IMG/VR virus record: IMGVR_UViG_3300045988_183942
Length of the DNA stretch: 53,299 nt
Direction: 5' to 3' (one strand)
Source: a virus
How positions within the stretch are numbered: position 1 is the stretch's first letter; each line of letters starts with the position of its first letter. Below the pieces are notes generated by a model, which had not been told where the DNA came from, did not search any database, and was given only the letters and a program-made list of their open reading frames with translations. The position numbers and the translations under genes were made by a program. Of the stretch, positions 1 through 53,299 are shown one piece after another.

Positions 1-11
1 CTTTTTTTTTT

Positions 12-43
12 GAGTCTGTAAAATTTCACAGACTCCTTTTTTC
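12..43. terminator. Hairpin gagtctgt-(8 nt)-acagactc flanked by T-runs on both sides (bidirectional terminator-like)
   Basis: 8-bp perfect stem at 12-19/28-35. T-run upstream (2-10) and downstream (37-42). Second copy at 53212-53243. Confidence 0.5.
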
Positions 44-68
44 TAATTGTCTACGGTGATTATTGAAG
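40..68 (+). repeat. 23-nt exact repeat tttctaattgtctacggtgatta followed after one mismatch by tgaag (copies at 40, 44519 and, within the terminal repeat, 53240)
   Basis: Direct reading. Both independent copies lie in intergenic DNA. Confidence 0.9.
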
Positions 69-266
69 AAGAAAAAAAACTTAAACATTAAATAATAAAA
101 AAAATAATTTTTTTTCAAAAATTGGAGCTGGTTCTTTTATTATTAATGATTTATTTTTTCTTCTAGTATTTTTTATACATATTAGTTATTATTTTTACAG
201 CTTATTTTAACATTAATTTATTTTTTTATAAAAAAAGAATAAAATTTTTAGGAGGATTGGAAAACA

Positions 267-5927: not shown

Positions 5928-6332
5928 ATGAGTATAACAATAAATCCTGATGATAACACATATGACCTTGGTGAATTAAGATTAGATAAAGAAATTATTG
6001 TTTGTGAAGATTTTAATGTGGAATTCAGTAGTGAATCTGAAACTCGTCCAGCCACTAACAGTCGTGACCCTGTAGGTTACAAAGGAGGTAAAAACGAGTA
6101 TAAATGGGAAGCTAATGGGGTTTCCCCTGAATTCTTCAGTATGTTGAGGGATTATCAAAGAAACAGGAGAAACTTCCCTATTGGAGTTTTTAATTTTAAT
6201 GATGATGGTGATTATAAAGAATTGTTCACCTTGTTACATTGTCGTATTGATTCCTGCACACCTACACAGGAAGATGAAGGAATGAGTATTGATGTATCTG
6301 GTACGGCATTAAGTGTTAAGGATAAGAAATAA
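5928..6332 (+). CDS. Tail tube protein (XkdM-like)
   Basis: 134 aa, GGAGG RBS. Fits the order sheath-tube-chaperone-tape measure. Confidence 0.55.
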   Translation: MSITINPDDNTYDLGELRLDKEIIVCEDFNVEFSSESETRPATNSRDPVGYKGGKNEYKWEANGVSPEFFSMLRDYQRNRRNFPIGVFNFNDDGDYKELFTLLHCRIDSCTPTQEDEGMSIDVSGTALSVKDKK

Positions 6333-7174: not shown

Positions 7175-7358
7175 TTTTATCGGTGAAGTTTATTTCCGTG
7201 TTAGTAAACATTTAAGCATTCCTATCAGTGAAGTGATTTATAAAAGGAATGATTTAGATATTATGATGTTAATGCGGAAGTATGGTATGGAAATAAGACA
7301 CGAGCAAGAGCAAATCAGAGAATTAAACAAACAAAGAAGAAAAAATAATAGGTGGTAA
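7134..7358 (+). CDS. Second tail chaperone ORF (gpT-like), possibly a frameshift extension
   Basis: Overlaps the chaperone end by 41 nt in the +1 frame. Has no RBS. Ends at the tape measure RBS. Confidence 0.4.
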   Translation: MILSRKNYFHLLDSFIGEVYFRVSKHLSIPISEVIYKRNDLDIMMLMRKYGMEIRHEQEQIRELNKQRRKNNRW

Positions 7359-7363
7359 AAAGT

Positions 7364-26823: not shown

Positions 26824-27170
26824 AAAAATTAATATGTGGAATATGATAGTTATTCTTTTCTATTTACTATTGAATTTATTTTATAAGTGAAACAGCTTGG
26901 TTAATGATTTTGTATTTTTTAAGTTTACATTTTTTTTTAAAACAAAGATAATTCTTCAATGAGGATATCTTTTTTTTATCATATTTAATTTATTTTTTTT
27001 AAGTTATCATCATTTTTATTTTAAACTACTTTAAAAAAAATGATTTGGAAGGGGGGGAAGAAAGTGTAATAACAGTACCTTTTGTTTGAATGATGAATGG
27101 ATTATTTTTAAATATTTTTTTTTAAAATGCAACAGAATAAATACTATTTTTTTTTAAAGGAGCGTAAAAC

Positions 27171-28097
27171 ATGATTAGAGAGTATACTAATTATACAAAT
27201 TATAGTAATATTTGCAATAGAATTGCTTATTGGCTTGTTAATAATAATAAGAAATTTAATGTTAGGCAAGTATATGGTTATATGAATCGTACGGCAGATT
27301 ATGGAACGATTATTAAAGTAATTAAGGAAAGAGGTACAAATTACCAATCTGACAGTCTTATAACTGAATTTGTGGAATGTGCCATACATGATAATAAAGA
27401 TTTAAGCTTTTTACCAAATTATGTGATTGATAAAAATGGTAAGAAGTATATGAAAGATACTTATGTTGATATGTGTCGCAGAGTATCAGCATATGAAGTA
27501 TTAAATGGTGTGAGTCCTGCAATAGTATATTTAACTGGCAATACATCAGTACAAAATACTACAAACAATAATAAATTATATAATTATTTAACAACTTCAG
27601 GCTGTGCAGGTATGGGACAATGCACACCATATTATTGTGCTTGTAATAGTCTACAACAAGCATTTTACCGTTTAACTGGCATTCATATATCAGAATCTAC
27701 AATAGCAAGTGTAGCTGGAACAACTACAGCTGGAACTGGACATCAAGGTATTAATACAACTGTTGCATGGTTTAATCGCAAATATGGAAAAAATATTAAA
27801 ATTACTTGGAAAAACTTCAATGATTTAGGAAGTTCTAATTCAGCAAGATGGAATAAATTAAACGAATATGCAACAAAAGGAGCAGTATTTTGTCACATAT
27901 TGTACCGTAATAAATATGGGCATTATGAAGTACTTAAATCAGTAAATGGTAATAATGTAACTGTTTTAAACAGTTTAGGAAACAGATGCAGTAAACCAGC
28001 ATATTGTGGATATATAGAAACTCGTAGTAAGTCAAATCAATTATCTTATATGAGAGGAATTAGCCAACCGAGTGTTGCAATCTTAACAAAAGGGTGA
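27171..28097 (+). CDS. Pseudomurein endoisopeptidase (PeiW/PeiP-like, peptidase C71) with N-terminal pseudomurein-binding repeats
   Basis: 308 aa. PMBR-like YMKDTYVDMCRRVSAYEVLNGVSPAIVY. C-terminal Cys/His-containing domain (GMGQCTPYYCACNS ... GHYEV). AAGGAG RBS. Confidence 0.65.
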   Translation: MIREYTNYTNYSNICNRIAYWLVNNNKKFNVRQVYGYMNRTADYGTIIKVIKERGTNYQSDSLITEFVECAIHDNKDLSFLPNYVIDKNGKKYMKDTYVDMCRRVSAYEVLNGVSPAIVYLTGNTSVQNTTNNNKLYNYLTTSGCAGMGQCTPYYCACNSLQQAFYRLTGIHISESTIASVAGTTTAGTGHQGINTTVAWFNRKYGKNIKITWKNFNDLGSSNSARWNKLNEYATKGAVFCHILYRNKYGHYEVLKSVNGNNVTVLNSLGNRCSKPAYCGYIETRSKSNQLSYMRGISQPSVAILTKG

Positions 28098-28102
28098 GAA
28101 TT

Positions 28103-28288
28103 ATGACAGAAATGAAAGAAGGTTTAAAAGAAACATTAGATAATTTACAACAAGAATGTAATAAATTGTATGAAGAATATGGTTTGATAGATGAAGTTAT
28201 GGATTTGCAATTATTAATTAATTCATTGAGAAACAAGTTTGATTTAGTTGATGAATCAGAACAGGTATACAATGAATTTGTACAATAA
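28103..28288 (+). CDS. Hypothetical small coiled-coil protein in the lysis cassette
   Basis: ATG at 28103 after GGGTGAG. Followed by a strong hairpin. Confidence 0.45.
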   Translation: MTEMKEGLKETLDNLQQECNKLYEEYGLIDEVMDLQLLINSLRNKFDLVDESEQVYNEFVQ

Positions 28289-28310
28289 TAACATAATTGG
28301 GAACTGTTGG

Positions 28311-28349
28311 AAGTTTATCAACTAATGGTTGATAAACTTATTTTTTTTA
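28311..28349 (+). terminator. Hairpin terminator
   Basis: 12-bp perfect stem aagtttatcaac/gttgataaactt with a 5-nt loop, followed by a T8 run. Confidence 0.65.
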
Positions 28350-28377
28350 TAAAAATAAGTAGTAATAAATAGAAACC

Positions 28378-28385
28378 TTTATATA
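28378..28385 (+). promoter_or_regulatory. Archaeal TATA-box-like element TTTATATA
   Basis: Consensus-like TATA about 37 nt upstream of the small ORF at 28422. Confidence 0.3.
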
Positions 28386-28421
28386 CTATGGTAACCAATA
28401 TAATAATAGAACTACGAGGAG

Positions 28422-28511
28422 GTGGAAAACATTGATAGAAAAGAGTTAGTTGCATGGCTTGGACTAATTGTCCAAGTTGCAACATTAATATACACAATAT
28501 TGATGGGATAA
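28422..28511 (+). CDS. 29-aa single-TM peptide (below the ORF-track cutoff)
   Basis: GTG start overlapping GAGGAGG. Peptide MENIDRKELVAWLGLIVQVATLIYTILMG. Followed by hairpin gatggga-(8 nt)-tcccatc. Start codon assignment is weak. Confidence 0.25.
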   Translation: MENIDRKELVAWLGLIVQVATLIYTILMG

Positions 28512-28587
28512 AAAAATCCCATCATCAAATTTAAAATTTAAAATTTTTATTATTTAAATTTTTTCCCAAAAAAGAGGTGGATGAAAA

Positions 28588-28734
28588 ATGTTAACAATAG
28601 CAAACATCGTAAATATAATAATAACCATATTATTCATAATATTAGTAATATCTGAAAGAAACAATCCTAAAAAACTACCAATAATATTATGTGGAATATC
28701 AATTGTATTAACAATTTTAAGCTTTGTCCTTTAA
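28588..28734 (+). CDS. 48-aa two-TM protein, holin-like candidate (below the ORF-track cutoff)
   Basis: ATG is 7 nt after AGAGGTGG. Peptide MLTIANIVNIIITILFIILVISERNNPKKLPIILCGISIVLTILSFVL. A terminator hairpin overlaps the stop. Confidence 0.5.
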   Translation: MLTIANIVNIIITILFIILVISERNNPKKLPIILCGISIVLTILSFVL

Positions 28735-28755
28735 AAAGACAAAGCTATTTTTTTT
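28721..28755 (+). terminator. Hairpin terminator gctttgtc-(9 nt)-gacaaagc plus T-run
   Basis: 8-bp perfect stem followed by tattttttttt. Confidence 0.55.
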
Positions 28756-28773
28756 TAAAAGGAGAATGAAATT

Positions 28774-29115
28774 ATGGAAAGAAGCACAATAAAATTAGAA
28801 GTAAGTTTAATTAATAAAATAAAAGAAATACAAGCATTAAACGGTTACAAATCAGTAAATGAAACAGTAAAACATATCCTGCCACAAGGAACAGTAACAC
28901 CTGAAACAGTAACTTATGAACAACCAGCATTCACATTAAACGATAAAGAAACTTATAAAAATGTTTCATGGGATGAATTAAAAAAAGCAGAAATTGGTAA
29001 AACATGGATTAATAATGAAGAGGCAACTGTAATATACAAAGATGAAATCGGAGCATTAATAAGATTTGTTGATGCATTTGGGGAGGTTTATTTAAATTAC
29101 TTCCACTTTTTATGA
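28774..29115 (+). CDS. Hypothetical protein, possible N-terminal ribbon-helix-helix
   Basis: AAGGAG RBS. STIKLEVSLINKIKEIQALNGYKSVNETVKHIL has an RHH-like pattern. Confidence 0.35.
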   Translation: MERSTIKLEVSLINKIKEIQALNGYKSVNETVKHILPQGTVTPETVTYEQPAFTLNDKETYKNVSWDELKKAEIGKTWINNEEATVIYKDEIGALIRFVDAFGEVYLNYFHFL

Positions 29116-29460
29116 AAAAGGAAATTTTTTCATTTTTAAAGAATTACCTTTTTATATATTTAATACTACTATAATTTCAATTTTTTTTACCAATATGAGA
29201 TTATCAAATAATTTAATTTAGAATAAATAGGTATTTAATTATTAAAATCTATACTTTCACAAAACAGAAGGTTATATTATTATTGATAATTTAATTAAAT
29301 ATAGTTTGAATATGAATTCAAAAACAGGATTTTTAAGTATTTAATTTTGTTTTGAATGAATAATTGGAGGAATATTTAAAACTATAATTACAAAATATTT
29401 ATAATAATTAAAATATATAGTATATCAAAGGAGATTTTATTTTTAGTGTAGGTTTTAAAA

Positions 29461-30216
29461 ATGTCAGATTTAGAATTCAAGAAACATTATTTGCAAGAGA
29501 TTATTTTTAAAGTAGATTTTAGAAATATTGGTGAGTTATTGGGAATGGAATCTAATCCTGATAAGTTTGTAAATATTATAAAAAAGGAATTTCCTAAGGT
29601 AAAGGGTATTGCTCAGCAAAATAAAGTTGAAATTTCAGCAGAAAACCCAGAAATAGAAAATATTGAGCAAAATAATATATGGGCTTATACAACTGCTGAT
29701 GATTCAAAATTTATTGAGTTATCTATGAATCATATTGCTATTTCATATGATGGCACTAAATACAAATCTCATTATGAATTAATTGAAGATATTAAATTAA
29801 TTATTAATGCATTAAAATGTTATGATGTGCATACGGTCAATAAAATTGGATTAAGATATATTAATGAAGTTTCGCCAGAAGTAGAAATTATTAATTGGGA
29901 TGATTGGATTAATCCTAAATTACATAATTTTAATTCTATAAATAATGAGTTAAAATTAATGAGAGTTTTAACTCAATCTGAATATCAAATAAGAGGATAC
30001 AACTTGGATTTCACATATGGACAATTTAATTTGAATTATCCAAATATTGAAATTAAAAATGATTTTGTTTTAGATTATGATTGTTATACTTCTTCTTTAA
30101 CTGATAGTGGTGATTTAATTAAAATTTTTGAAGAAATGCATGATATTATTAAATTATTGTTTAATGAGAGTATTGGAAAGGAATTATTTAAAGATTTAAA
30201 AGGTGAGTTAGAATGA
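29461..30216 (+). CDS. TIGR04255-like uncharacterised protein (cassette gene A)
   Basis: 251 aa. N-terminal KKHYLQEIIFKVDF and internal IGLRYINEV resemble the TIGR04255 family signature as I recall it. Confidence 0.4.
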   Translation: MSDLEFKKHYLQEIIFKVDFRNIGELLGMESNPDKFVNIIKKEFPKVKGIAQQNKVEISAENPEIENIEQNNIWAYTTADDSKFIELSMNHIAISYDGTKYKSHYELIEDIKLIINALKCYDVHTVNKIGLRYINEVSPEVEIINWDDWINPKLHNFNSINNELKLMRVLTQSEYQIRGYNLDFTYGQFNLNYPNIEIKNDFVLDYDCYTSSLTDSGDLIKIFEEMHDIIKLLFNESIGKELFKDLKGELE

Positions 30217-30695
30217 ATGGGACTGTTACACACTCTATTGCTGAAAATTCTTTTAAAATTCCTAGAATATCTAATAGATTAAAATTTGCAGATAAATTCA
30301 AAAGAAATAATGAGAATACTGTATTATCTACAAAATATGCAAAAGTAAATTATGGTGATTTTCTTCAAAAAAGTATTAAATTAGAATTGTTTTTAAATTC
30401 AACATTTAATATAGAATCTAAACGTGAAGATTTGATTTCATTTATTATTAATAATAATTTATTAGATATAATAAAAGAGTTACCAAATAATCTTGAAGAA
30501 TATTTTGATACTTTAGATTTGGAAATTCATTTAGAAAATAAATGGAATAATAAAAAATGGATTGTTGTTAAAGTTTTTACTAAACTTGATGGAGAATCTG
30601 CAAGTAATAAATTAGATTTAATTGAAGATAAATTATTTGAAAAGTATCAAGATGATTTTTTAGATAATATATTATTATCTGTGGAGTTTGAATGA
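30213..30695 (+). CDS. Unknown protein (cassette gene B)
   Basis: ATGA overlap with both neighbours. 160 aa. No recognisable nucleotidyltransferase motif. Confidence 0.5.
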   Translation: MNGTVTHSIAENSFKIPRISNRLKFADKFKRNNENTVLSTKYAKVNYGDFLQKSIKLELFLNSTFNIESKREDLISFIINNNLLDIIKELPNNLEEYFDTLDLEIHLENKWNNKKWIVVKVFTKLDGESASNKLDLIEDKLFEKYQDDFLDNILLSVEFE

Positions 30696-31105
30696 GTTCT
30701 GAAGAAAAATTTGACTGGTGTGAATATTATAATTTCGCTGATTCTTTTTCAAGTTCAGATAATCCTGCTGAATTAAGAAGTGGTATTAGTAGATTTTATT
30801 ATTCTGCTTTTTGTACTTGTAGAGATTATATTATTGAACATAGGTTATGGGGTGATGATGAAGAACTTGAAAAGATTATGACCTCCAAATCTTCAAAGGT
30901 TCATGAAAAAACATATGAAATTTTTCATGACAATCATTTTTTAAATAGACAAAAACACGGTATGAAAATTGCGAGACTTCTATTGGAACTTCGTGATAAA
31001 AGAAATGATGCGGATTATAAGTCGGAAAAGTATAATGTAAAATATAATCATGCTTTTGTCAAAGCCAGGACAAAAAAACTTTTCGATGAGTTTAAAAAAT
31101 TATAA
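30692..31105 (+). CDS. HEPN-domain protein, UPF0332-like (cassette gene C)
   Basis: GISRFYYSAFCTCRDYII ... KVHEKT ... LRDKRNDADY matches the UPF0332/HEPN helix pattern (sRaYYa.F ... H ... R..aDY). Confidence 0.5.
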   Translation: MSSEEKFDWCEYYNFADSFSSSDNPAELRSGISRFYYSAFCTCRDYIIEHRLWGDDEELEKIMTSKSSKVHEKTYEIFHDNHFLNRQKHGMKIARLLLELRDKRNDADYKSEKYNVKYNHAFVKARTKKLFDEFKKL

Positions 31106-31107
31106 AT

Positions 31108-31355
31108 TTGTTTGAATTTGATAACATCGATTTGGAATTAATTGAAGATATGAAAAAATTATTTGATGGTTTGAATAATGAAGAAGTTTGTGCATTAACT
31201 TATTTTACTTTCTCGGAAACCACTACTGAATCTTTAATTAGAATTAGAATTATTGAAAATAGAGAAAAAATAGCAGTAAATTTATTTAAAAGAATAAAAT
31301 TAGTGTAGGGAAAGCATCTGAAATTGCAGGTTTACATTTAAAAGAGTTTTACTGA
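31108..31355 (+). pseudogene. UPF0175-like (VapB-type antitoxin-like) gene, disrupted by a -1 frame change and truncated
   Basis: The frame ending at TAG 31306-31308 reads ...EKIAVNLFKRIKLV*. The -1 frame from 31290 reads KNKISVGKASEIAGLHLKEFY*, which matches the gk.SlgkAAeiaGl core. The junction lies in an A-run. Confidence 0.35.
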
Positions 31356-31410
31356 TTTATTATTGAATAAAAATAAAAAAAAGTAATGATATTAATCAAT
31401 ATAATAATTT

Positions 31411-32553
31411 TTATCTTTTTTTGAATTTATCTAAAACATTACATAACCCATCATCAAACAACATTTCCTCAATAGCAGACAACCTATTATTCATAGTCTT
31501 CACTTCAACCTCTTTTTCCTGATATTTACCTTCTAACTCCAGATATTCTGGAGATTTGTAAGTAATATTATTCCAATTAATCATTAAACAATCAAGATGA
31601 TTAATATATTCTTCACGGAGTTTTTCAGGATCTTCCATAAAATAACTACTGTGCGTTGCATCTTTTCCTCTGCCTTGTAGAGCATCTACAAATTCGATAC
31701 TGCAATTATCGTTGAATAATTGGCTTGCATGGAATTTACGAAGCATATGGGGTCTAAATCGGATGTATGTTCCTTTTTTGCCTAATCCTAATTTATTGTT
31801 TAATTGTTCAAAAGATATGCTTGTGTAGTTTTCAGTTAAATTAAATAGTTTATCAGTGTTTTTTAAATCACGATTTGATGAAATAAGATAATTAATTATT
31901 TCTGATGTAGATTCTGGTGATGAAAAGGTTGTGTAAAATTTATTGGTTTTAGGACGTCGAAGTTCCCAAGTAGGAACTACATCTTTTTTGTCTTTAAGTA
32001 CATTTAATACATCGTAAATATTATTTTCTTGATGATATTGTTTAGTAGCATCTATAAAATTTTGTATTGTGAAATTTAATGTTTCTATTCTACTACAACC
32101 GCTGCTGCTGATAAAGAGGATTATTGCTCTCATTCGAGTGTTACTGATGTCTAATGCTTTTTTAATGATTTCATGGTCTGGTAAATCTTTAAATGTGATG
32201 GGTTTGTTTTGGTTAACATTTTTCATAGAATAGATTGGGAGTTGGTGGATTTCAATATCGTAATGTTTGTAGATGGTTAATATTTTTGAGAACATTATTC
32301 TTGCAGATCCAACAAGGTAATTTTCATAAATATATGATCTATAGTTCATTAATCTTTTTTTTAATGTACGATTTTTCCAACGAATGCCTTGTTCTTCTTC
32401 TTTTTCTGCTTCTTGTATGAGGTCTACTAATGATTTTTGTTGATATTGTGTGTATGTTTTAATATAACTTTTGTATACATTTATTGTTGTTTGTTTGAGG
32501 TTTCGGGATTTTGCAAAATCAGTTAGCAATTCTTTATCATTTTTCATATACAT
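31411..32553 (-). CDS. int: Tyrosine recombinase/integrase
   Basis: 380 aa. SSGCSRIETL (Arg box), HMLRKFHAS (HxxR-type box) and a C-terminal ...ATHSSYF Tyr region. Confidence 0.7.
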   Translation of the reverse strand: MYMKNDKELLTDFAKSRNLKQTTINVYKSYIKTYTQYQQKSLVDLIQEAEKEEEQGIRWKNRTLKKRLMNYRSYIYENYLVGSARIMFSKILTIYKHYDIEIHQLPIYSMKNVNQNKPITFKDLPDHEIIKKALDISNTRMRAIILFISSSGCSRIETLNFTIQNFIDATKQYHQENNIYDVLNVLKDKKDVVPTWELRRPKTNKFYTTFSSPESTSEIINYLISSNRDLKNTDKLFNLTENYTSISFEQLNNKLGLGKKGTYIRFRPHMLRKFHASQLFNDNCSIEFVDALQGRGKDATHSSYFMEDPEKLREEYINHLDCLMINWNNITYKSPEYLELEGKYQEKEVEVKTMNNRLSAIEEMLFDDGLCNVLDKFKKR

Positions 32554-32967
32554 ATCATTTCATCCTTAGTTGTTATTTGCTCTTTTTGTATGTGAGCATT
32601 TGAAAAGTATATGGAAAAAGAATATTTTTATTCTATTATAATTATCTTTTTTCATATACTTTGTATTATGATATGTTTTTAAGTAGTATATGATATTATC
32701 TATTATTTTTTGTTATTGGAGATTTTAATTTTTTGTATGTTGTTACAATATTTTCATGTTTTTGTTTGAAAGTGACCCATATATTTTTCCAAAAAATACT
32801 ATACAAAATAATATGCATATTATAATTTTGTTGAACAAAATGTAATTTAATTATTATAGTAAGGTTTAAATATTCAAAACAATAATAAATATAATTAGAC
32901 AAAAATAGAAAGGAGTTAATATTATACTTCGGAGGTATTAATTATTAAAATAGGAGGTTAAAAAAAT

Positions 32968-33480
32968 ATGAATAATGAAATTGAATATCATCCTGAAAAA
33001 TTAAAATCAGTAATACATTACATCATAAGTAAATGTGGTTTAAATCATAATGTTGGTAGAACAGTAATGTACAAATTATTGTATTTTTCTGACTTCAATT
33101 TTTATGAAATATATGAAACTCCAATTACTGGAGAAACATATATTAAAAAACCAAACGGCCCAATATCTTCACATTTTCTTGATTTAAAAGATGAATTAAT
33201 AAGTGAAGGAAAAATAAAAGAAGACGTGGAAAGAGTAATTGACTATCCCAAATATAAATATACTTCTCTTATAGGGCCTGATGTTACTAATTTAAGTAAA
33301 CAGGAATTAGAAGTTATAGATGATACTATTAACAAATTATCTGATATGAGTGCAAAGGAAATTAGTAATTATTCTCATGGAGATTTACCATGGCGAATTG
33401 CAGAAACTAATGCTGAATTAGATTATGAGTATGTTTTTTATCGTGATCCAGAATATATTGTGAGGGAATATGATGAGTAA
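32968..33480 (+). CDS. Panacea/DUF4065 (SocA/PanA-like) antitoxin-domain protein
   Basis: RTVMYKLLYFSDFNFYEIYETPITGETYIKKPNGPISSHF fits the DUF4065 core (KLqKLLYf.d ... GP). GGAGG RBS. Confidence 0.55.
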   Translation: MNNEIEYHPEKLKSVIHYIISKCGLNHNVGRTVMYKLLYFSDFNFYEIYETPITGETYIKKPNGPISSHFLDLKDELISEGKIKEDVERVIDYPKYKYTSLIGPDVTNLSKQELEVIDDTINKLSDMSAKEISNYSHGDLPWRIAETNAELDYEYVFYRDPEYIVREYDE

Positions 33481-33853
33481 ACTGGATAATTATCAGTTTG
33501 ATACTCACCCTCTTTTTGATGATGAATTTAATAAAATTATTAATAGGCATAAATGCCCTACTTTAAAAGAGGATTTTGAAAGGTTAAAATTTGCATTGGT
33601 GCAATATTTGGAGGATTTAAATAGGTTTCCAGTTAATATATGTAATAGGATTGCAGGGTTAGATAGTAAAGTAAAATTTCCAGCTTTTATTGTTAAGAAT
33701 TTCCGTTGTAAAGGAATTAATAAAGGGTCTCGTTCTGGTTTTAGAATTACTTTTTTATTTTCCCGTGAAGATAATCTTTTTTATTTTGTTGAAATTTATA
33801 ATAAAAATAAGAAACCTGTTGAGGATAAAGAAAGAATTAATGAGTTATTTTAG
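33470..33853 (+). CDS. RelE/ParE-superfamily-like toxin
   Basis: Overlaps the upstream gene by 11 nt. KGINKGSRSGFRITFLFSREDNLFYFVEIYNKNKKPVEDKERI fits the G.sgGyRviy...l.iy.K pattern. Confidence 0.5.
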   Translation: MMSKLDNYQFDTHPLFDDEFNKIINRHKCPTLKEDFERLKFALVQYLEDLNRFPVNICNRIAGLDSKVKFPAFIVKNFRCKGINKGSRSGFRITFLFSREDNLFYFVEIYNKNKKPVEDKERINELF

Positions 33854-33940
33854 AATTCTAAAAAAAAATTTTTTAATGGTTAACAATCTTAACATTTTAT
33901 TAATTAGTAAAAACAAAAAATAGAATTGTAAAAAGTGGAG

Positions 33941-33962
33941 TTGGGGTGCTGCAACACCCCAA
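33941..33962 (-). terminator. GC-rich hairpin ttggggtg-ctgcaa-caccccaa, terminator for the leftward AbrB-like transcript
   Basis: 8-bp stem. On the minus strand it is followed by T-rich sequence. Confidence 0.45.
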
Positions 33963-34147
33963 TCCTAGCTACTAAAAAAACAAGACACCTGAGATGATGT
34001 AATGAAATTCGTAGCCAATTATAATATATGGTTAAAATGCTATATAATCTTTTGTTATATAGTCGCTGATGGAAAGCGAAGGTTACAATATTTAGCGAGA
34101 GCTATCAATAATTTAAACTTATTTTTAGAAAAAAATATAGTTGCTAC

Positions 34148-44518: not shown

Positions 44519-44547
44519 TTTCTAATTGTCTACGGTGATTAATGAAG
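44519..44547 (+). repeat. Second copy of the 23-nt repeat tttctaattgtctacggtgatta (+tgaag)
   Basis: Exact match to 40-62, then 64-68 after one mismatch. Confidence 0.9.
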
Positions 44548-45881: not shown

Positions 45882-46448
45882 ATGCCACCAAAGCCTAAAG
45901 TAGAAGTGTCACCTCATTATGATGAAATTATTGATTTATTATTGGATGGTAAAAGTTCAAGGGAGGTTTCTGCTTATTTGAAGAAGGAATATGGTGAGGT
46001 TATTGGGCATAATGCTATTAGTAATTATAAACGTAATCATATGAAATTAGAGGAGAAAGTGGAGGCTGAAGCTAATAGGTTGTTAGCTAAGAAAACTGCT
46101 GAAGTGGTTGATGATAGTGTTAAGAAGAAAGCTGAAACTATTGTTGATGTTGAATTGGAAACTCAAACTGTAGCTAGTCAAAGTGCAGAATTATTAATCG
46201 GTTTGCATAAAGTAGCTTCAGATTTCCCAGAGGATTATAGGCGGATGAAAGAAGCTGCTGAATATGATGATTCAAGAGTAACTTGGAAAGATGTTGCTAA
46301 TATGAGTTTGCAAGCAAACAAAATTTCTAATGATTTCTTGAAAAATACTGATGTTAATGTTAATGTTGAGAATAATAATTTAACAACTTATTTTGATGAA
46401 GAAAAAATAAGGAATATTTTATATGCTAAGCGAGAAAGAAATAAGTGA
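45882..46448 (+). CDS. terS: Terminase small subunit
   Basis: HTH-like SSREVSAYLKKEYGEVIGHNAISNY. Directly upstream of and overlapping terL. ATG at 45882 is 9 nt after GGAGG. Confidence 0.55.
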   Translation: MPPKPKVEVSPHYDEIIDLLLDGKSSREVSAYLKKEYGEVIGHNAISNYKRNHMKLEEKVEAEANRLLAKKTAEVVDDSVKKKAETIVDVELETQTVASQSAELLIGLHKVASDFPEDYRRMKEAAEYDDSRVTWKDVANMSLQANKISNDFLKNTDVNVNVENNNLTTYFDEEKIRNILYAKRERNK

Positions 46449-47799
46449 AATCTTAAATGATTTATATCTTTTTTATCGTGTTTTCATCACATCAAAATAT
46501 GAAACAGATGTTGAAGCTCCACACATTGATAAATTATCAGAGGAGTTAACTGCTTTAACTTTAGGTGAGTATGAACGTTTGTGTGTTGCAATGCCTCCAA
46601 GGCATTCCAAATCATCTATGGTTACTTTAGCTTATCCTTTATGGTTAATATTCCAAAACCCACATCTTAATATTCTTATAGTTTCTAATGAAGCAAGCTT
46701 AGCAGAAACATTTGGTATTAAACTAAGAGAATACATTAAAAAATATGGAGCATACTTCGGAGTACACCTATCAGAATCAAAACACAGCAGTACTCATTTA
46801 ATGTTCGAAGACAAAAAGGGTTTAGCAGGAAGTATTAAACTAGTAGGAGCTAATGGTTCTATTACGGGTAGAGATGCAGACTACATTATCATAGATGACC
46901 CGTATAAAGGATTTGAGGATATCACACCAACATTACTGCAAAAAAGGATTGATTGGTTTGACATTATTATTGAACAAAGAATAGAATCCCATACCAAACT
47001 AGCTATACTGCACACTCGTTGGCATAGTAATGATTTGCAAGGTTATTTTAAAAAGAACCGTAGTGAAGATTATCATTTCATAAGCTTCCCAGCAATCAAG
47101 GAAAATGGTGAACAATTATGGCCTGAAAAATATACGATTGAAAAATTGGAAAAGAAAAGGGAATCTATTGGTGAGCGATTATTCCAATCTATTTTTCAAC
47201 AAAAACCAATAGATGATACCAGTGATTTCTTCGATTTAAACAAATTTCATTGGCAGGCCCCTCCAAAAGAATTAACAACCATTCAAATGTGTCGTGGATG
47301 GGATGTAGCTTCAAGTGACCCTGGTAAAAATGATTTCACAGCAGGAGTACCTATGTACCTGTTAAACGATAATAAATCTATACTTATAACTGATTTTGTT
47401 CATGGGCAATTTGGTAAAGACACAAGTCAAAAAATAAAAAATCAGATAATACTTGATGGACATGATAATATTTCAATAATTGAAACTGGAGTAGCTGCTG
47501 CAGGGGCACTACTCTATGATAACTGGGAGCAACAATTACCAGGATACTTCCTGGAAAGAGCCATACCCGTACCAAATAATAGTAAAGCAGACCGAGCAAC
47601 ACCACTGAAAGATTATATTTACGATGGACATGTATATGTTGATATTAAGGATAATAATCTCCGTAAAATATTCCAAGATGAATTTCGTGCATTTCCTAAT
47701 GGAGAACATGACGATATTGTTGATGCAACTGCACATGTATTCAATTATATTAACCAAGAATTTATTGGGAATGATATCTTTGAAATTGTGGAAATATAA
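46423..47799 (+). CDS. terL: Terminase large subunit
   Basis: AMPPRHSKSS (Walker A variant P.RhGKS), YIIIDDP (Walker B) and a C-terminal nuclease-like region. Confidence 0.75.
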   Translation: MLSEKEISEILNDLYLFYRVFITSKYETDVEAPHIDKLSEELTALTLGEYERLCVAMPPRHSKSSMVTLAYPLWLIFQNPHLNILIVSNEASLAETFGIKLREYIKKYGAYFGVHLSESKHSSTHLMFEDKKGLAGSIKLVGANGSITGRDADYIIIDDPYKGFEDITPTLLQKRIDWFDIIIEQRIESHTKLAILHTRWHSNDLQGYFKKNRSEDYHFISFPAIKENGEQLWPEKYTIEKLEKKRESIGERLFQSIFQQKPIDDTSDFFDLNKFHWQAPPKELTTIQMCRGWDVASSDPGKNDFTAGVPMYLLNDNKSILITDFVHGQFGKDTSQKIKNQIILDGHDNISIIETGVAAAGALLYDNWEQQLPGYFLERAIPVPNNSKADRATPLKDYIYDGHVYVDIKDNNLRKIFQDEFRAFPNGEHDDIVDATAHVFNYINQEFIGNDIFEIVEI

Positions 47800-47832: not shown

Positions 47833-49113
47833 ATGGGATTTTTTAACAACATCAAAAAAAGCATAATGAAACTACCCGGACTACGAAACCCTGAAGACGA
47901 TTCATTACTCTATGAATTCATGAACAATTACCATTGGGCATTCACACAAGCCAACAAAGACACAGGCGACCTACAAACATATTATGACTCATATAATAAT
48001 GTTTTTGTTAAATCATGCATTAAAGCATACATCAGATACAGCCTAATAAACGGATTCACCATTACCAACAATTATGGTGAAGAAGTAAATCCCATAACAG
48101 CTAATTACTTAAATAACTTATTCAATGATCCTCAGGGAAAATTAAGAGCAGATACATTTGCAACACTCAATGATTTAATATGGAAATCATGGAAATTAAC
48201 AGGAGACTGTTTTATAGAAGTTAACCATAAAGAAAATTATGGCAACATACCTATTGGTTTTAAACATATACCTACAGAGTTAATCTGTTATCATAATGAT
48301 ACTAGCCAATGGGGTCTTCGTAATACAGATTACAGGTTTGAAGATGATGAAATAATACATATATATGAACCTAGACCCGAAGCTAAAAACTATCTATGGG
48401 GTATTAGTGAAATAGACAGTATTGGATTATCTATTGCATTAGAATTCAGTGGTTTAAAACATAACAAAGAAATGTTTGATAACAGCGGAATGGATCCACG
48501 AGGAATATTATCATTTGATAAAGAAACAAGTAATGTAAGTATTCAATCTTTTATTAACAGAATGAAGCAAGATAAAAATAAAAAAGGTTTGCTTACAGTT
48601 AAAGGAGCTACTTATCAAAGCACAGGTAATAATAACCGTGATTTGGATTTCCTTAACTTATTAAATTATAGTCGTGATCGTATATTAATTGGTTTTCAAG
48701 TGCCTCCTGCTGTGATAGGCATTGTTGAAACAGCACATTTAGGTAGTGGTACAGGGGATAGTCAAGAAAAATCTTTTAATAATACTTTGTCTGGGGATTG
48801 TAAGATTATTGAAAATGCTTTTAATAAAGTATTAGGCAGGTCTGGGTTTAAAGAGGTTTTTGAGTATAACCATATGGATTTGGAGAATAAGTTGACTCGT
48901 GCTCAGATAGAGGATATTCAGTTGAAGAACGGTGTTAAGTCTATTAACGAGGTTCGTTTGGATTATGGTTTGAATCCTGTGGATTGGGGTGATTTACCTT
49001 TAAATCAAGAGTTAACAATGTCACCTAACATGGGCAATGGTAATTATAGTACTGAGGTTAAGAGTTTAGAAAAAGCTTTAACCATGGAAAGATTACGCAA
49101 GGAGTACCAGTAA
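47833..49113 (+). CDS. Portal protein
   Basis: 426 aa, lying between terL and the MuF-like gene. AAGGAG RBS. Confidence 0.65.
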   Translation: MGFFNNIKKSIMKLPGLRNPEDDSLLYEFMNNYHWAFTQANKDTGDLQTYYDSYNNVFVKSCIKAYIRYSLINGFTITNNYGEEVNPITANYLNNLFNDPQGKLRADTFATLNDLIWKSWKLTGDCFIEVNHKENYGNIPIGFKHIPTELICYHNDTSQWGLRNTDYRFEDDEIIHIYEPRPEAKNYLWGISEIDSIGLSIALEFSGLKHNKEMFDNSGMDPRGILSFDKETSNVSIQSFINRMKQDKNKKGLLTVKGATYQSTGNNNRDLDFLNLLNYSRDRILIGFQVPPAVIGIVETAHLGSGTGDSQEKSFNNTLSGDCKIIENAFNKVLGRSGFKEVFEYNHMDLENKLTRAQIEDIQLKNGVKSINEVRLDYGLNPVDWGDLPLNQELTMSPNMGNGNYSTEVKSLEKALTMERLRKEYQ

Positions 49114-49114
49114 T

Positions 49115-50611
49115 ATGGTGTCAGTTGAAAGAATTAAAACTAATCATATGCTCCTTGATGATTTAGGTTTATGGGATGAGTTTAGAATAAATAAAACACG
49201 CGATTCTTCAGTAGTTCAAAGATATTATAATCTTTTAAAAGAGCTTATTGATAATCAATTATCTTCAACTAAAAGTTGGTTAAATACGACTGAAGCAAGA
49301 AATTATTTCTTTAATGGGGCGAAATATCAAAGAGAAGTATTTTCTGCACTTGAAGAGGATTTAGATGAACTACTTGAAAAAAATTATTTTAGTATTGATT
49401 CATTACTTGAAGATATATATCAAAGAGGAAAACAAAAAGGTTACTTGGATATAAAATCTAAACAACGTTTCACACAAGCAGATAAATTAGCATTGCAATT
49501 TGCTAAAGATTATAATCATGGACTTGTGAGGAATCTTTCACGTGATTTAAGACATACAGTTAAAAATGAAATATTTAAAGGAGTTATAGCTGGGGAAAAT
49601 CCTCATGAAATTGCAAGAAGATTGTTAAAAGTTGGGGTGCAACCTTTAAAAAACACCACATTCACACCATTGCAAAGAGCAACATTAATAGCTAAAACAG
49701 AAGTAAGTAGAGTACAAAATACAGGAATACTCCAATCATATGCAAATGAAGGCTACACAGAAGTTAAAATTTTAACTGCAGAAGATAATAATGTTTGTAC
49801 TACATGTTTAAAGTATGCATATGAATTTAACAAAAATGAGAATGTAATCTTTGATAATCATGGGGAAGAAAAAACTCATAAAATAGAAGATATTCTTGGA
49901 TTAATACCATTTCATCCAAATTGTAGATGTACAGTCACAGCAGTATGGGAAACCAAAGGGGAACCTCCTGAAAACCCGATTGTAACAAATTTAACTGAGG
50001 ATAATAATTTCAACAGATATATTATAGATAATGGGAAGTTATATCCTATTGTTGGAAATACTCATAAAGGAAGATTAGATTTTGAAATGGATTGTGGTGT
50101 TTTTGCAGATAATTTAACAGAAGAAGAATTAGAATTCATAAGATTATACACTAAAAAGGGAGACTCAATTCTAAACTTTTATTTAAGAGGACTACAATCT
50201 CCAGATAGAAACCCAAAACAAGAATGGAAAAATTTGGTTAAAGAAAGAGAGGTTGATATTTCTTTTGAGAGGGCTTTAGAATTAGTTAGAATGGTATTTA
50301 ATAAAGGTATAGTACTTAATGAACCATTAGTGTTAATTAGAAGAGAAAATAATAGGTACATGAAAGTAGAAGGTAATAAAAAAGTTTATTCTGATAAAGG
50401 TATTCTTTCAACATCTATAGGTGAAAATGTTAAATCTGATGTTTATGGTGATGAACTTAATTATATTTTAGTTCCTGCAGGAACAAAAGTGCTATATGTT
50501 GAAGGAATTACAGCAACTCAAGGTGATTTTGAGGTGATGTTGCCTCCAGGTTCTAATTTAGAATATATTAAAGATATTGGAGCTCATGCTAAAGTATGGA
50601 AACTTCAATAA
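49115..50611 (+). CDS. Head morphogenesis protein (SPP1 gp7/Mu F family) fused to a C-terminal ADP-ribosyltransferase-like toxin domain
   Basis: IAKTEVSRVQNTG ... VCTTCLKY ... FHPNCRCTV (MuF). C-terminal YTKKGDSILNFYLRG, LIRRE, GILSTSIG and GDFEVMLPPGSNLEYI (R-STS-[D/E]xE pattern). Confidence 0.65.
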   Translation: MVSVERIKTNHMLLDDLGLWDEFRINKTRDSSVVQRYYNLLKELIDNQLSSTKSWLNTTEARNYFFNGAKYQREVFSALEEDLDELLEKNYFSIDSLLEDIYQRGKQKGYLDIKSKQRFTQADKLALQFAKDYNHGLVRNLSRDLRHTVKNEIFKGVIAGENPHEIARRLLKVGVQPLKNTTFTPLQRATLIAKTEVSRVQNTGILQSYANEGYTEVKILTAEDNNVCTTCLKYAYEFNKNENVIFDNHGEEKTHKIEDILGLIPFHPNCRCTVTAVWETKGEPPENPIVTNLTEDNNFNRYIIDNGKLYPIVGNTHKGRLDFEMDCGVFADNLTEEELEFIRLYTKKGDSILNFYLRGLQSPDRNPKQEWKNLVKEREVDISFERALELVRMVFNKGIVLNEPLVLIRRENNRYMKVEGNKKVYSDKGILSTSIGENVKSDVYGDELNYILVPAGTKVLYVEGITATQGDFEVMLPPGSNLEYIKDIGAHAKVWKLQ

Positions 50612-50695
50612 ATATAAATATTTATATGATGCTGTTAACATATTAATATTAAAAATTAAATTTAGTTAATTGTGTTTTGATGGAGGTTATTGTTT

Positions 50696-51082
50696 ATGGT
50701 TGTTATTAAGTATGTTCGTTGTGATAAGGAATTTATTAAGAATATGCCTGCTAAAATTTTAGCTGAATTAATAATTCTTGAAGAGCCAATCCCGGGGGAT
50801 CTTGAATCAGCACTTCTTGGGAATAATAATACATTCAACAAAGAACGAAGAGATTTTGTGGGTAGGCGTGATGATCTTCTTAAACAAATTTGGGAAATTA
50901 ATTATAAAAAAGAGCAAATGAACATTGATGATTATTTAAAATTTGAAGTAGAGGAAGATATCCAATTTGTTAAGAAATATCCTCAATTCAAACCATTAAT
51001 AAATCATATTGAATATTGGGATAATGAAGCTGAAGTAATTATTAAAGAAGTTCCATTAGATGAATATTTATTAGAAAACTAA
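50696..51082 (+). CDS. Hypothetical protein (candidate immunity partner of the ART domain)
   Basis: ATG at 50696 is 9 nt after GGAGG. Immediately downstream of the toxin fusion. Confidence 0.35.
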   Translation: MVVIKYVRCDKEFIKNMPAKILAELIILEEPIPGDLESALLGNNNTFNKERRDFVGRRDDLLKQIWEINYKKEQMNIDDYLKFEVEEDIQFVKKYPQFKPLINHIEYWDNEAEVIIKEVPLDEYLLEN

Positions 51083-51152
51083 CCTCTCAGTACTACTTTT
51101 TTTTTTACTTTAAATGTATTACTATTAAAATAATAGTATATTGGTGATTTGT

Positions 51153-51815
51153 ATGGATATGTTTTTCGGAATATTAAATTTATTTTGGCAGATTATTTCA
51201 TCATTAAGTGTTATAGTCACATTATTTTGTTTTGTTTATCCTGAAGGAGCTTATCCCATAATTTCCTTTGTTTTTAATAAGATTAAAGAAAGAAGACTTA
51301 AAAAAACAATGTTAAATATTACTTTGATTTTTGATTATGATTGTAATATTCTTAATGATACACCCAACTTTAAAGAAGATATAGATGAATTATTCAAACA
51401 TTATGGTTTGATTTCTGACATGGAAGGTAATATAATTAAAGGAAATTTGAAAAGAAGAAATTTTCCAATATATTCTAAATTTAGAATTCCATTAGATGCT
51501 GAAACAAATTTGCATTTTACTCAAGCAGTAGATATTTCTTTTGAGAAATTTAATGATTGTATGTTATCTTTATTTGATAATATTCGTGAATTATTTAAAT
51601 TAAATTATATTTCAAACATTGATGGGAAAGTGAATATTCGCGTTAAAACATCATTTAATAAAAATAAATTGGTAAATCTTTTGGGAGATAATATATTAGG
51701 TAATTTTTCAATAATCACTGAAAATGGTGAAGTGACATTGATATATAATGGGGAATTAGTCGTCGAATCCATAGATTTTATTAAGGAAATTATTCTTGCT
51801 CTTGAGGATATTTAA
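51153..51815 (+). CDS. N-terminally membrane-anchored hypothetical protein
   Basis: TM FFGILNLFWQIISSLSVIVTLFCFV. No recognisable domain. Confidence 0.45.
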   Translation: MDMFFGILNLFWQIISSLSVIVTLFCFVYPEGAYPIISFVFNKIKERRLKKTMLNITLIFDYDCNILNDTPNFKEDIDELFKHYGLISDMEGNIIKGNLKRRNFPIYSKFRIPLDAETNLHFTQAVDISFEKFNDCMLSLFDNIRELFKLNYISNIDGKVNIRVKTSFNKNKLVNLLGDNILGNFSIITENGEVTLIYNGELVVESIDFIKEIILALEDI

Positions 51816-52518
51816 ATAATGGATAAATAATTTTGTCGAAATATTCTATTAATGTTATGCTATTCACTTCTTTATGTGGGGAATATAATTTATTTTGACT
51901 TATTGTAATTGTATTTACTAATTTCTTTGACATTATTCTGACACTTGTTTTTGTTTTTGCAGTTTCATTAATTAAACTGTATAATTCACTTTCAATACCT
52001 TCATCATCTCTTAAAATCCCATGTAAATTTACAGAATGATCATTTGCATTTAATCCTTTCCACCATCCACTTAATACTTCGGATGCATCTTTTTTTATTA
52101 TATCTGCGAAATATTCTTTTAAATCAAGTTCATTTGTTTTTAATTCTACCATTTGCTCTAAAGGTATGTTAATTTGAATTATTCTTTTCAGTTCACTTAG
52201 GATAAAATCTAAGTTTGATGAAGATTTAATAAAAATGAAAGTTTGAGGATGTTTAAAAGAAATCCATATTTCTGCAGAATCAACATGGAAATTAGGGAAA
52301 TTTCTTTCATCAATTTGAATTTTAGTTACTGATTCGTGTGTAAATTTAAAATCAATTAAATATTTTTCTCTAATGTTGTATTCGGAGATGTATTGTTTTA
52401 GTTCGACATCAAATTCTTCTTCTTTTTCATTTACTGAAGTATAATGTTTAATATAATCTAAATGTTGTTCTTTTAATCCATTGATTTTAAAAATATGTAA
52501 GGAAATCATTTTTAACAC
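51790..52518 (-). CDS. Hypothetical protein, antisense to the structural operon
   Basis: 242-aa ORF. 3' end converges on and overlaps the previous gene by 26 nt. Confidence 0.5.
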   Translation of the reverse strand: MLKMISLHIFKINGLKEQHLDYIKHYTSVNEKEEEFDVELKQYISEYNIREKYLIDFKFTHESVTKIQIDERNFPNFHVDSAEIWISFKHPQTFIFIKSSSNLDFILSELKRIIQINIPLEQMVELKTNELDLKEYFADIIKKDASEVLSGWWKGLNANDHSVNLHGILRDDEGIESELYSLINETAKTKTSVRIMSKKLVNTITISQNKLYSPHKEVNSITLIEYFDKIIYPLFKYPQEQE

Positions 52519-52634
52519 CTTAAGTAATTGTTTGTTATATTGTGTATAAATGTTTTATATCTATTTTTTTCTAAATCGTTACACTGTATATATGAAGAAA
52601 AGACTAAACATACTTTTCTTAATTATCAGCTCTT

Positions 52635-53200: not shown

Positions 53201-53299
53201 CTTTTTTTTTTGAGTCTGTAAAATTTCACAGACTCCTTTTTTCTAATTGTCTACGGTGATTATTGAAGAAGAAAAAAAACTTAAACATTAAATAATAAA
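53201..53299. repeat. Direct terminal repeat, right copy
   Basis: Identical to 1..99. Confidence 0.95.

Follow-up and report, generated by a model that had tools for sequence, protein, structure and literature searches.

A predicted MuF-ADP-ribosyltransferase fusion and its candidate immunity gene among the head genes of a temperate virus of Methanobrevibacter smithii

The fusion gene and its ADP-ribosyltransferase domain

In a viral sequence of 53,299 nucleotides (nt) (IMG/VR record IMGVR_UViG_3300045988_183942, analyzed over its whole length and called the window here), a gene located immediately 3' of the portal gene was predicted, from the letters alone, to encode a minor head protein of the MuF/gp7 kind fused to an ADP-ribosyltransferase (ART) toxin domain, with a possible immunity gene behind it. 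Both open reading frames (ORFs) were found as described in this original prediction: 49115-50611 (plus strand, ATG start, 498 amino acids (aa)) and 50696-51082 (ATG start, 128 aa). The portal gene ends at 49113 and the fusion gene starts at 49115. The small ORF, the first member of a family that we named D1, starts 84 nt 3' of the end of the ART gene and can also be read as 130 aa from a TTG at 50690. We consider it likely that these are the two partners of a toxin-immunity pair, carried within the head module of a virus that is temperate and infects Methanobrevibacter smithii. The features of the pair are as follows.

49115..50611, plus strand: MuF-ART fusion gene, 498 aa (Pfam, PHROGs, homologues)
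49556..49936, plus strand: Mu F/SPP1 gp7 head-morphogenesis domain, residues 148-274, with HPNCRC at 49913-49930
50105..50566, plus strand: ART domain, residues 331-484 (Pfam, C3larvin profile alignment, fold, conservation)
50342-50344 (R410), 50408-50416 (S432-T433-S434) and 50525-50533 (D471-F472-E473), plus strand: catalytic positions, from the alignment to C3larvin
50621-50629, plus strand: TATA-like TTTATATGA, read from the sequence; putative promoter
50682-50687, plus strand: Shine-Dalgarno sequence GGAGGT, ending 8 nt ahead of the ATG
50696..51082, plus strand: candidate immunity gene, D1 family, 128 aa, strictly paired with ART
51097..51106, plus strand: run of 10 T directly after the immunity gene, likely an archaeal terminator

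The seven motifs from which the two domains had first been recognized are all present in the protein: TEVSRVQNTG (residue 195), VCTTCLKY (227), HPNCRC (267), YTKKGDSILNFYLRG (345), LIRRE (407), GILSTSIG (429), and GDFEVMLPPGSNLEYI (470). When judged against the curated Pfam cut-offs, residues 148-274 match PF04233 (Phage_Mu_F; 43.9 bits vs. a cut-off of 29.6, E 4.6e-11) and residues 331-484 match PF03496 (ADPrib_exo_Tox; 43.2 bits vs. 23.4, E 3.6e-11). Agreement of this order far exceeds what chance would give. The conserved columns of the N-terminal carrier region extend over about residues 1-290. Several PHROGs annotated as 'minor head protein' or 'head morphogenesis' also match the protein, and phrog_595 aligns with residues 68-486; as this alignment spans both domains, the same two-domain fusion is already present among sequenced phages. 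The proposed fusion is thus backed by Pfam and PHROGs, as well as by the profile match to C3larvin and the structural comparison given below.

The suspected catalytic pattern (Arg, STS, and acidic-x-Glu) was aligned across 42 full-length homologues, from which a profile was also built. R410 and S432 are conserved in 42/42 of these proteins, T433 in 37/42, S434 in 35/42, and E473 in 41/42, while position 471 is acidic in all 42 (D in 33, E in 9). Identity within the ART domain drops to about 30% among the homologues, and the retention of the catalytic residues despite this divergence indicates a putatively active enzyme under selection. The profile matches the solved ART toxin C3larvin (E 7.6e-8), and the alignment puts the YT..N.YLR helix, the catalytic Arg, the STS, and the QxE in register. 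An AlphaFold model built on the homologue alignment had block-mean predicted local distance difference test (pLDDT) values mostly of 80-92 (range 70-92) for residues 331-498. Using Foldseek, its best matches in the PDB were a Listeria ART toxin, C3bot1, Certhrax, C3larvin, and Vip2 (E 3e-8 to 1e-6); a probability of 1.00 was returned for the first four as well as for Plx2A, Vip2, and CDTa, and the TM-scores, normalised to single-domain targets of ~180-210 residues, were 0.51-0.60. The ART fold is therefore predicted and the catalytic residues are kept in the homologues, the two points on which the toxin assignment could have failed. Its fold and catalytic residues place the C-terminal domain among the R-S-E mono-ADP-ribosyltransferases of the C3/Vip2 kind, with a predicted activity.

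The acidic-x-Glu motif reads D-F-E in the window protein, in contrast to the canonical E-x-E. An Asp in place of the usual Glu or Gln at the first position of the ADP-ribosylating turn-turn (ARTT) motif could be a sign that the domain is catalytically dead and has a structural role in the head only. We find this hardly credible, as R410, S432, and E473 are retained in 41-42 of the 42 proteins, with position 471 always acidic, despite deep divergence, and as the NAD-binding fold is well predicted.

Pairing of D1 with the ART domain and exchange of C-termini

Loci were gathered via the MuF domain, and their C-terminal domains and first downstream ORFs were clustered separately; individual loci are cited by number (L) where needed. 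In the initial set of ART loci, D1 lies directly after the fusion gene in the window, in L002, L003, L004, L017, and L020, and in MSTV1, the only isolated M. smithii virus. These D1 proteins measure 128-151 aa (108 aa in MSTV1) and share the motif F-[VI]-K-K-Y-P-Q-F-K. Four further ART proteins from divergent subgroups were looked up blind, and each adjoins a 126-134-aa ORF that matches the D1 profile, which brings the pairing to 11/11 independent ART loci. The downstream ORFs of loci with non-ART C-termini belong to other families, and the D1 profile matched 0/30 of them, even at E 10. The pairing also holds in MSTV1, whose carrier domain has diverged too far to be recognised by Pfam (PHROGs still report 'head morphogenesis'), and in L077, which has a different gene order. 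The co-variation that the original prediction called for between the toxin domain and the downstream ORF was thus found to be strict.

The D1 family comprises ~60 clusters at 50% identity among 1.84 billion representative sequences, and the members whose source is named all come from Methanobrevibacter. The protein is predicted to adopt a small alpha/beta fold (pLDDT 94.8, predicted TM-score (pTM) 0.85). No match below E 0.5 was obtained when this model was compared with the PDB and BFVD using Foldseek, and no Pfam hit was detected. Since neither an ADP-ribosylhydrolase (ARH) nor a macro fold is seen, D1 is not an ADP-ribosylhydrolase or macrodomain, and immunity, if this is its function, would be by binding. 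PADLOC returned no meaningful match for the toxin, the immunity gene, or the adjacent cargo ORFs. In the representative library, D1-like domains were also seen at or near the C-terminus of two longer proteins, P0275 (517 aa) and P0267 (669 aa), one of which carries TPR and HIRAN domains.

Published expression data on MSTV1 bear on this gene. The GenBank numbering (ORF N = protein XCD08651+N) was checked on ORF4 (HEPN), ORF8 (MazE), and ORF26 (zinc finger), and it makes the ART protein ORF34 and the D1 homologue ORF35. In MSTV1 lysogens, the structural genes are near-silent (<0.5 RPKM, reads per kilobase per million), while ORF35 is among the most highly expressed genes (10.5 RPKM) (PMC11375127). 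Its authors proposed that ORF35 acts in host-defence silencing or superinfection exclusion, and the main text mentions neither ADP-ribosylation nor MuF (PMC11375127). Such lone lysogenic transcription within a silent head module fits an immunity gene directed against an incoming virion-borne toxin. Three independent lines of evidence, comparative or published, now back the small gene, which was first proposed only as a possible immunity gene, and they make it very probable that the 128-aa ORF encodes an immunity protein to the ART domain.

Sequence similarity to other viruses and to host arrays stops just past the T run, at 51112-51126, and is followed by a cargo slot that contains other DNA in viruses that are otherwise 99% identical.

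51115..52562, no strand assigned: variable cargo slot, two ORFs, no family hits
51141-51815, plus strand: cargo ORF, 224 aa, no family hits
51790-52518, minus strand: cargo ORF, 242 aa, no family hits

In relatives, the slot (L075 5083-6329; L076 5163-6942) is occupied by ThsB_TIR and 8xMP proteins or by an AAA_15/AAA_21 ATPase with a weak DUF4276 match, cargo that looks like defence genes. The position after the MuF gene is therefore a cargo hot spot, and D1, which has no recognisable function, might itself be an unrelated 'moron', for example an anti-defence or exclusion factor that travels with the ART gene by linkage. We regard this as quite improbable. The linkage persists across ARTs that are ~30% identical, in the divergent MSTV1 carrier, and in the L077 gene order; D1 is never found with other C-termini; and the host arrays described below retain 3' remnants of the C-terminus together with the cognate small ORF.

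The assignment of D1 as an immunity gene is set within a wider pattern of exchange, in which MuF domains closely related to one another carry at least seven interchangeable C-termini, the ART domain being one of them and every other type being paired with its own small-ORF family. Measured against the window, the N-domains of non-ART proteins are 50-58% identical and those of ART proteins 41-99%, many of the latter at 52-54%, so that the two bands overlap. On a neighbour-joining tree of 114 N-domains, ART vs. non-ART requires at least 14 changes, and the seven C-terminal types require 40 changes vs. a minimum of 6. A mosaic virus shares 49877-51114 with the window at 99.2% identity and its terminase and portal at 76.5%. 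The C-terminal domain and the small gene are thus an exchangeable module. Among the other types are C-termini with an HExxH motif (zinc-metallopeptidase; L006, L012, L013, L030, and L031), with HNHP..S..D (JAB/RadC-like; L007, L024, L029, and L039), and of another type in L040. These motifs were identified by eye and regular expression only, and Pfam recognised nothing in the non-ART C-termini.

Toxin-less D1 copies and a repeat array beside cas2-cas1

Copies of D1 without the toxin are present in M. smithii chromosomes at 98-100% identity. One 98%-identical copy is not beside any MuF or ART gene, and only window positions 50662-51112 are shared with it (98.7-98.9% nucleotide identity). The surrounding host island consists of small ORFs, nearly all of which are homologous to ORFs found after other MuF C-termini in Methanobrevibacter viruses, and some are preceded by 3' remnants of the cognate C-terminal domain. 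No MuF N-domain was found in the island. This organization resembles the poly-immunity loci of polymorphic toxin systems, which supports the immunity reading for the whole set of ORFs.

Each unit of the island is bounded by a sharp-edged 37-nt direct repeat, GTATGTTTGCTTCAAAAAGATGCAATTAAACTTTGAC, always in the same orientation. The arrays and the window region captured in them are located as follows.

L050 1506-11535; also L048, L049, L055-L057, L059-L061, L063-L065, L078, L079, L086, and L087 (M. smithii chromosome contigs): 37-nt repeat array
50051..51302 of the window, plus strand: region captured in host arrays, six fragments, 98.7-99.4% identity

The first repeat lies ~110 bp after cas2-cas1, with an AT-rich leader ahead of the repeats. 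Cas1 scores 242.5 bits with TIGR00287 (cut-off 71.7) and fits no subtype model; Cas2 is barely over the cut-off of TIGR01573 (26.7 vs. 24.5 bits). No effector cas gene was found within ~5 kb upstream of cas2 in contigs of 1.2-1.95 Mb, where the genes are metabolic. When the arrays were compared as strings of unit types, strain-specific units were located at the cas end and shared units behind them, along with internal losses and one tandem duplication. The number of repeat mismatches climbs from the cas end (0, then 2, 3, 5, and 9; 5-9 in the distal repeats). This polarity and decay are the dynamics of a CRISPR array. Adjacent cas1-cas2, a leader, sharp direct repeats within 23-47 nt, leader-end growth, and a degenerate distal repeat are all found, as in CRISPR arrays; the 51 distinct inserts, however, measure 173-3229 bp, with none shorter, and fall outside the roughly 26-72 nt of CRISPR spacers. 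No short-spacer version of the array was found in viral contigs, and no Rfam CRISPR-repeat family matched the array. The repeat has no copy in the window, even with 3 mismatches allowed, and is absent from six further stretches of 20 kb each from M. smithii chromosome and provirus.

Many inserts are Methanobrevibacter virus fragments with whole small genes. The six fragments captured from the window region (50662-51112, 50662-51126, 50675-51126, 50676-51126, 50621-51249, and 50051-51302) all include the whole immunity gene and its Shine-Dalgarno sequence. Six different sets of end points and a virus without the repeat imply at least six independent cuts from viral DNA rather than cassettes moved by a site-specific recombinase. 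No flanking motif equivalent to a protospacer-adjacent motif was evident by eye at 15 mapped junction pairs. The orientation of ORFs within units is mildly biased (48 plus vs. 30 minus), and we do not claim leader-driven expression. When the 53 ORFs of MSTV1 are considered, array homologues exist for ORF26, ORF27, a portion of ORF28, the ART portion of ORF34, and ORF35 only, a set that includes both isolated loci expressed in lysogeny (ORF26 and ORF35). The window allele of D1 is always intact in the arrays and co-oriented with the repeats. The MSTV1 ORF35 allele is found in minus orientation in L078 (13851-14173) and L087 at 93-95% identity, and it seems to be broken at about codon 46, as tblastn gives two adjoining segments and the only ORF called there has 47 aa.

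A one-unit array was also detected in a viral contig (IMGVR_UViG_3300029790_000345; L020 5965-7345). Two identical diverged 37-nt repeats, GTATGTTTCTTAATGAAAGATACAATTAAAATTTAAC, flank residues 255-498 of the ART protein and D1 at 99% identity, and the unit adjoins the 3' side of that virus's own, different MuF toxin and small ORF. A CDI/Rhs-like origin of this 'orphan' module (CDI, contact-dependent inhibition), by homologous recombination at the HPNCRC region, was rejected on account of the two identical repeats and of a left end that is a capture end point. Two other origins were rejected for the host repeats. Serial provirus integration at an att site followed by decay does not agree with a window that lacks the repeat and with fragments that are internal and have variable ends; an integron does not agree with the six sets of end points and the repeat-free virus, and the only tyrosine recombinase lies ~6 kb past the distal end.

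Tentatively, and with somewhat more doubt than belief, we propose that the array beside the stand-alone cas2-cas1 pair of M. smithii takes in 0.2-3.2-kb virus fragments at its leader, the immunity gene of the window being one of its 'protospacers', and thereby builds a heritable library of stolen antidote or exclusion genes, not of guide RNAs. The fragments that persist would be whole genes expressed in lysogeny, such as MuF-toxin immunity genes and homologues of MSTV1 ORF26, ORF27, and ORF35. This proposal rests on a structure that is consistent across many independent assemblies. The arrays resemble CRISPR and mini-CRISPR loci in their cas1-cas2, AT-rich leader, 37-nt same-orientation repeats, and leader-end units, and in the existence of a one-unit version borne by a virus. 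They differ in their whole-gene inserts of 173-3229 bp rather than spacers of ~30-40 nt, and in the lack of nearby effector cas genes and of an Rfam repeat match. The host loci are also like CDI/Rhs orphan modules, with 3' toxin remnants followed by intact cognate small ORFs and with immunity-like genes that lack toxins; unlike those modules, they are not 3' of a full toxin gene but lie between 37-nt repeats at cas2-cas1, with variable end points. Standard CRISPR finders would miss inserts of such size. No paper with the repeat sequence or such arrays was found, although our access to the literature was limited and this is no proof of novelty.

The virus, related systems, and the proposed mechanism

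The window ends in a direct repeat, and the other landmarks of the genome are listed with it.

1..99 = 53201-53299, no strand assigned: direct terminal repeat, 99 nt, 100% identity
45876-46448, plus strand: candidate small terminase subunit, from position only
46423-47799, plus strand: large terminase (Terminase_6C/6N in Pfam; phrog_38, E 2e-76)
47833-49113, plus strand: portal (Phage_portal, E 7.8e-26)
31411-32553, minus strand: integrase-like ORF, Pfam score under the cut-off

The terminal repeat makes the window a circularly closed viral genome of 53,200 bp (53.2 kb) with an arbitrary cut point, and a 53,255-bp contig with the same integrase was found. With the circle closed, the head module runs past 53 kb into 267-2352: three cargo ORFs and the circular junction are followed there by a scaffold-like ORF and the major capsid protein (ORF 1315-2352, SU10_MCP match). 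A methanogen had been guessed as the host, and the evidence agrees. Named homologues are all from Methanobrevibacter, M. smithii proteins match the downstream ORF at 98% identity, and 16/18 loci recovered from species-representative genomes are in Methanobrevibacter assemblies. A window-type provirus lies inside a 1.85-Mb M. smithii chromosome contig (L082), beside housekeeping genes, and a 142-kb contig carries a module 99% identical to that of the window. The provirus and the integrase-like gene mark the virus as temperate, and the window is the complete circular genome of a temperate M. smithii virus. A baseplate J match suggests a tail with a baseplate, possibly contractile. The 1305-aa ORF at 7352-11269, which contains a tandem 195-nt duplication (75% identity, 9908-10297), is probably the tape measure protein. 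Rfam gave zero matches in the window.

Positions 26000-34000 form a low-GC region (24-25% GC vs. ~30% elsewhere) with small ORFs around the integrase-like gene, and resemble the hypervariable region described for MSTV1-like viruses. In an identical contig, the neighbours of the integrase-like gene include a SocA_Panacea-domain protein and a weak MazE antitoxin match. A 48-aa ORF in this region (28588-28734, within 28551-28755) is indexed in 2679 blocks of the collection. Related proviruses in chromosome contigs such as L082 end with a pseudomurein endoisopeptidase gene, and in other proviruses the 48-aa ORF comes just after this gene, at the provirus end. It is also captured in host arrays, with one tandem duplication (L050 8453-8910). 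A motif of ~29-42 nt, TTTCTAATTGTCTACGGTGATTATTGAAG, is repeated at module boundaries (window 40-68, 44519-44547, and 53240-53268; L020 5860-5901), ahead of the head genes and ahead of the packaging genes. Its conservation is 93% in a virus with structural genes only 76% identical, and in the window it comes after a hairpin with flanking T runs. This motif may be a late promoter or regulatory site.

The fusion protein is like SPP1 gp7 and Mu F in its PF04233 domain, its gene right after the portal gene, and its conserved motifs; unlike it, gp7 carries no effector domain. The original prediction had also referred to MuF-toxin fusions as a recognised class, often with immunity genes downstream, and the anatomy agrees with that described by Jamet et al. 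The pair is an archaeal-virus member of this known MuF polymorphic toxin class, which contains Bxa/Bsi and Apk2. As in other members (PMC5576092, PMC3482391; among them the EFV toxin of E. faecalis and the (p)ppApp synthetases Apk2), a conserved MuF domain carries a variable C-terminus, followed by a small ORF of <150 aa, in a temperate element; the D1 family and the host capture arrays are not part of the class as described. ARTs make up 14% of MuF toxins (Jamet et al. 2017, PMC5576092). Members studied by experiment are Bxa, with Bsi and BAH (PMC11699363), and the Apk2 alarmone synthetases. The word 'archaea' is absent from the main text of Jamet et al. 2017 (PMC5576092), and Zhang et al. 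2012 list Euryarchaeota for the MuF system in a phyletic table only (PMC3482391). The class was thus already known to touch archaea, and we found no analysis of it in archaeal viruses.

We propose the following mechanism. The MuF/gp7 minor head protein, associated with the portal, would bring a few copies of the C-terminal domain fused to it into the capsid. The fusion would then enter the next cell with the DNA, on the model of T4 Alt and of other MuF toxins, and the C-terminal domain would ADP-ribosylate proteins using nicotinamide adenine dinucleotide (NAD), with the acidic-x-Glu motif hinting at arginine acceptors. Host proteins would be modified in this way, either for takeover of the cell or to harm unprotected cells. 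D1, for which the comparative support is strong, would bind and block the ART domain, and would shield the producer cell, lysogens that meet related virions, and any host or competing virus to which the gene passes by itself. The C-terminal domain and the small gene swap as a module, with at least seven C-terminal types.

The closest studied relative, Bxa from a Bacteroides stercoris prophage, has immunity proteins Bsi and BAH encoded by small ORFs after it and interchangeable C-termini (PMC11699363). The window pair shares with it a MuF-ART fusion, a small downstream ORF, and a family of exchangeable C-terminal toxins. It differs in its archaeal host (pseudomurein walls and archaeal targets), in its single partner gene, and in the lack of an ADP-ribosylhydrolase partner; D1, moreover, has no similarity to described immunity proteins in the libraries searched. 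If D1 is an immunity protein, its action would be of the binding type, as for Bsi, whereas the ARH or macro fold of BAH/Tri1 is absent from the D1 model. Bxa, a MuF-ART of a gut prophage, targets epithelial cells and is toxic in bacteria as well, and adjacent genes neutralise it. As M. smithii shares the gut habitat, the ART of the window could likewise act outside the archaeon, on animal gut cells or neighbouring bacteria after release by lysis, with the small gene protecting the producer only. This is very unlikely in our view: producer-only protection leaves unexplained the toxin-less D1 copies in non-lysogenic hosts and in a rival virus, and no secretion or uptake domain is present in the fusion.

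The purpose of the modification within the archaeal cell allows another explanation. T4 Alt belongs to the same ART superfamily branch (Alt/VIP2) and is delivered in the capsid with the DNA; unlike the window protein, Alt is an internal head protein in its own right, without fusion to a MuF domain, and lacks an immunity gene. The ART could be a host-takeover or counter-defence enzyme of this kind, aimed at reprogramming the archaeal transcription machinery or disabling a defence protein, with the small gene as a regulator or superinfection-exclusion factor. MuF-ART fusions are so read in PMC9503650, low-toxicity MuF effectors may steer the lysis-lysogeny decision (Jamet et al., PMC5576092), and the possibly contractile tail would place the virus in the class of contractile-tailed phages, which is enriched in ARTs. 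This explanation overlaps with a toxin-immunity pair and differs chiefly in what the modification is for. We nevertheless judge it unlikely. A pure takeover enzyme needs no dedicated, strictly co-varying partner gene, and it would give hosts and rival viruses no cause to gather the partner by itself. The ART is swapped with unrelated C-termini that each have a small ORF of their own, which is the pattern seen in toxin-immunity modules, and a dedicated, widely stolen antidote argues that the ART activity is harmful to the recipient.

Several points weigh against the toxin-immunity pair that we favour. Packaging, injection, ADP-ribosylation, toxicity, and neutralisation are all steps that we infer, and the modification may serve either takeover, as by T4 Alt, or the killing of unprotected cells. 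The Asp at the first ARTT position, in the window and in most homologues, is unusual, and the acceptor specificity is not readable from the motif. D1 resembles no known immunity protein or fold in the libraries searched, and adjacency by itself would let ART and D1 be inherited together. The entire ART domain, with an internal Met, is retained in some captured units (L020 6211-6735 and the unit in L060), so that the copies held by hosts are not free of the toxin in every case; in L020, the internal ATG at 6211 opens a 174-aa ORF with the entire ART domain. Selection may also not be the whole cause of host capture of the MuF region, which could come in part from a mechanical bias such as DNA ends close to the site of packaging.

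M. smithii dominates the methanogens of the human gut, and little has been done to characterise its viruses. A toxin-immunity pair in the head module gives testable functions to two unannotated genes of MSTV1, that of a toxin to ORF34 and that of immunity to ORF35. New here are the host domain, the family of immunity proteins, and a connection to unexplained data on the one M. smithii virus in culture. The MuF polymorphic toxin strategy, so far studied in bacteriophages only, is found with full modular turnover in archaeal viruses, together with a new immunity-protein family of confidently predicted new fold. This raises the question of which targets an arginine-type ART would have in archaeal cells. 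If confirmed, the host arrays would be a new route to cellular immunity against virion-delivered effectors and a new activity of a Cas1-Cas2 module, with a bearing on the evolution of CRISPR adaptation; if it is true that Cas1-Cas2 insert these fragments, the arrays would be a functional intermediate between casposon-type integration of long DNA and CRISPR adaptation.

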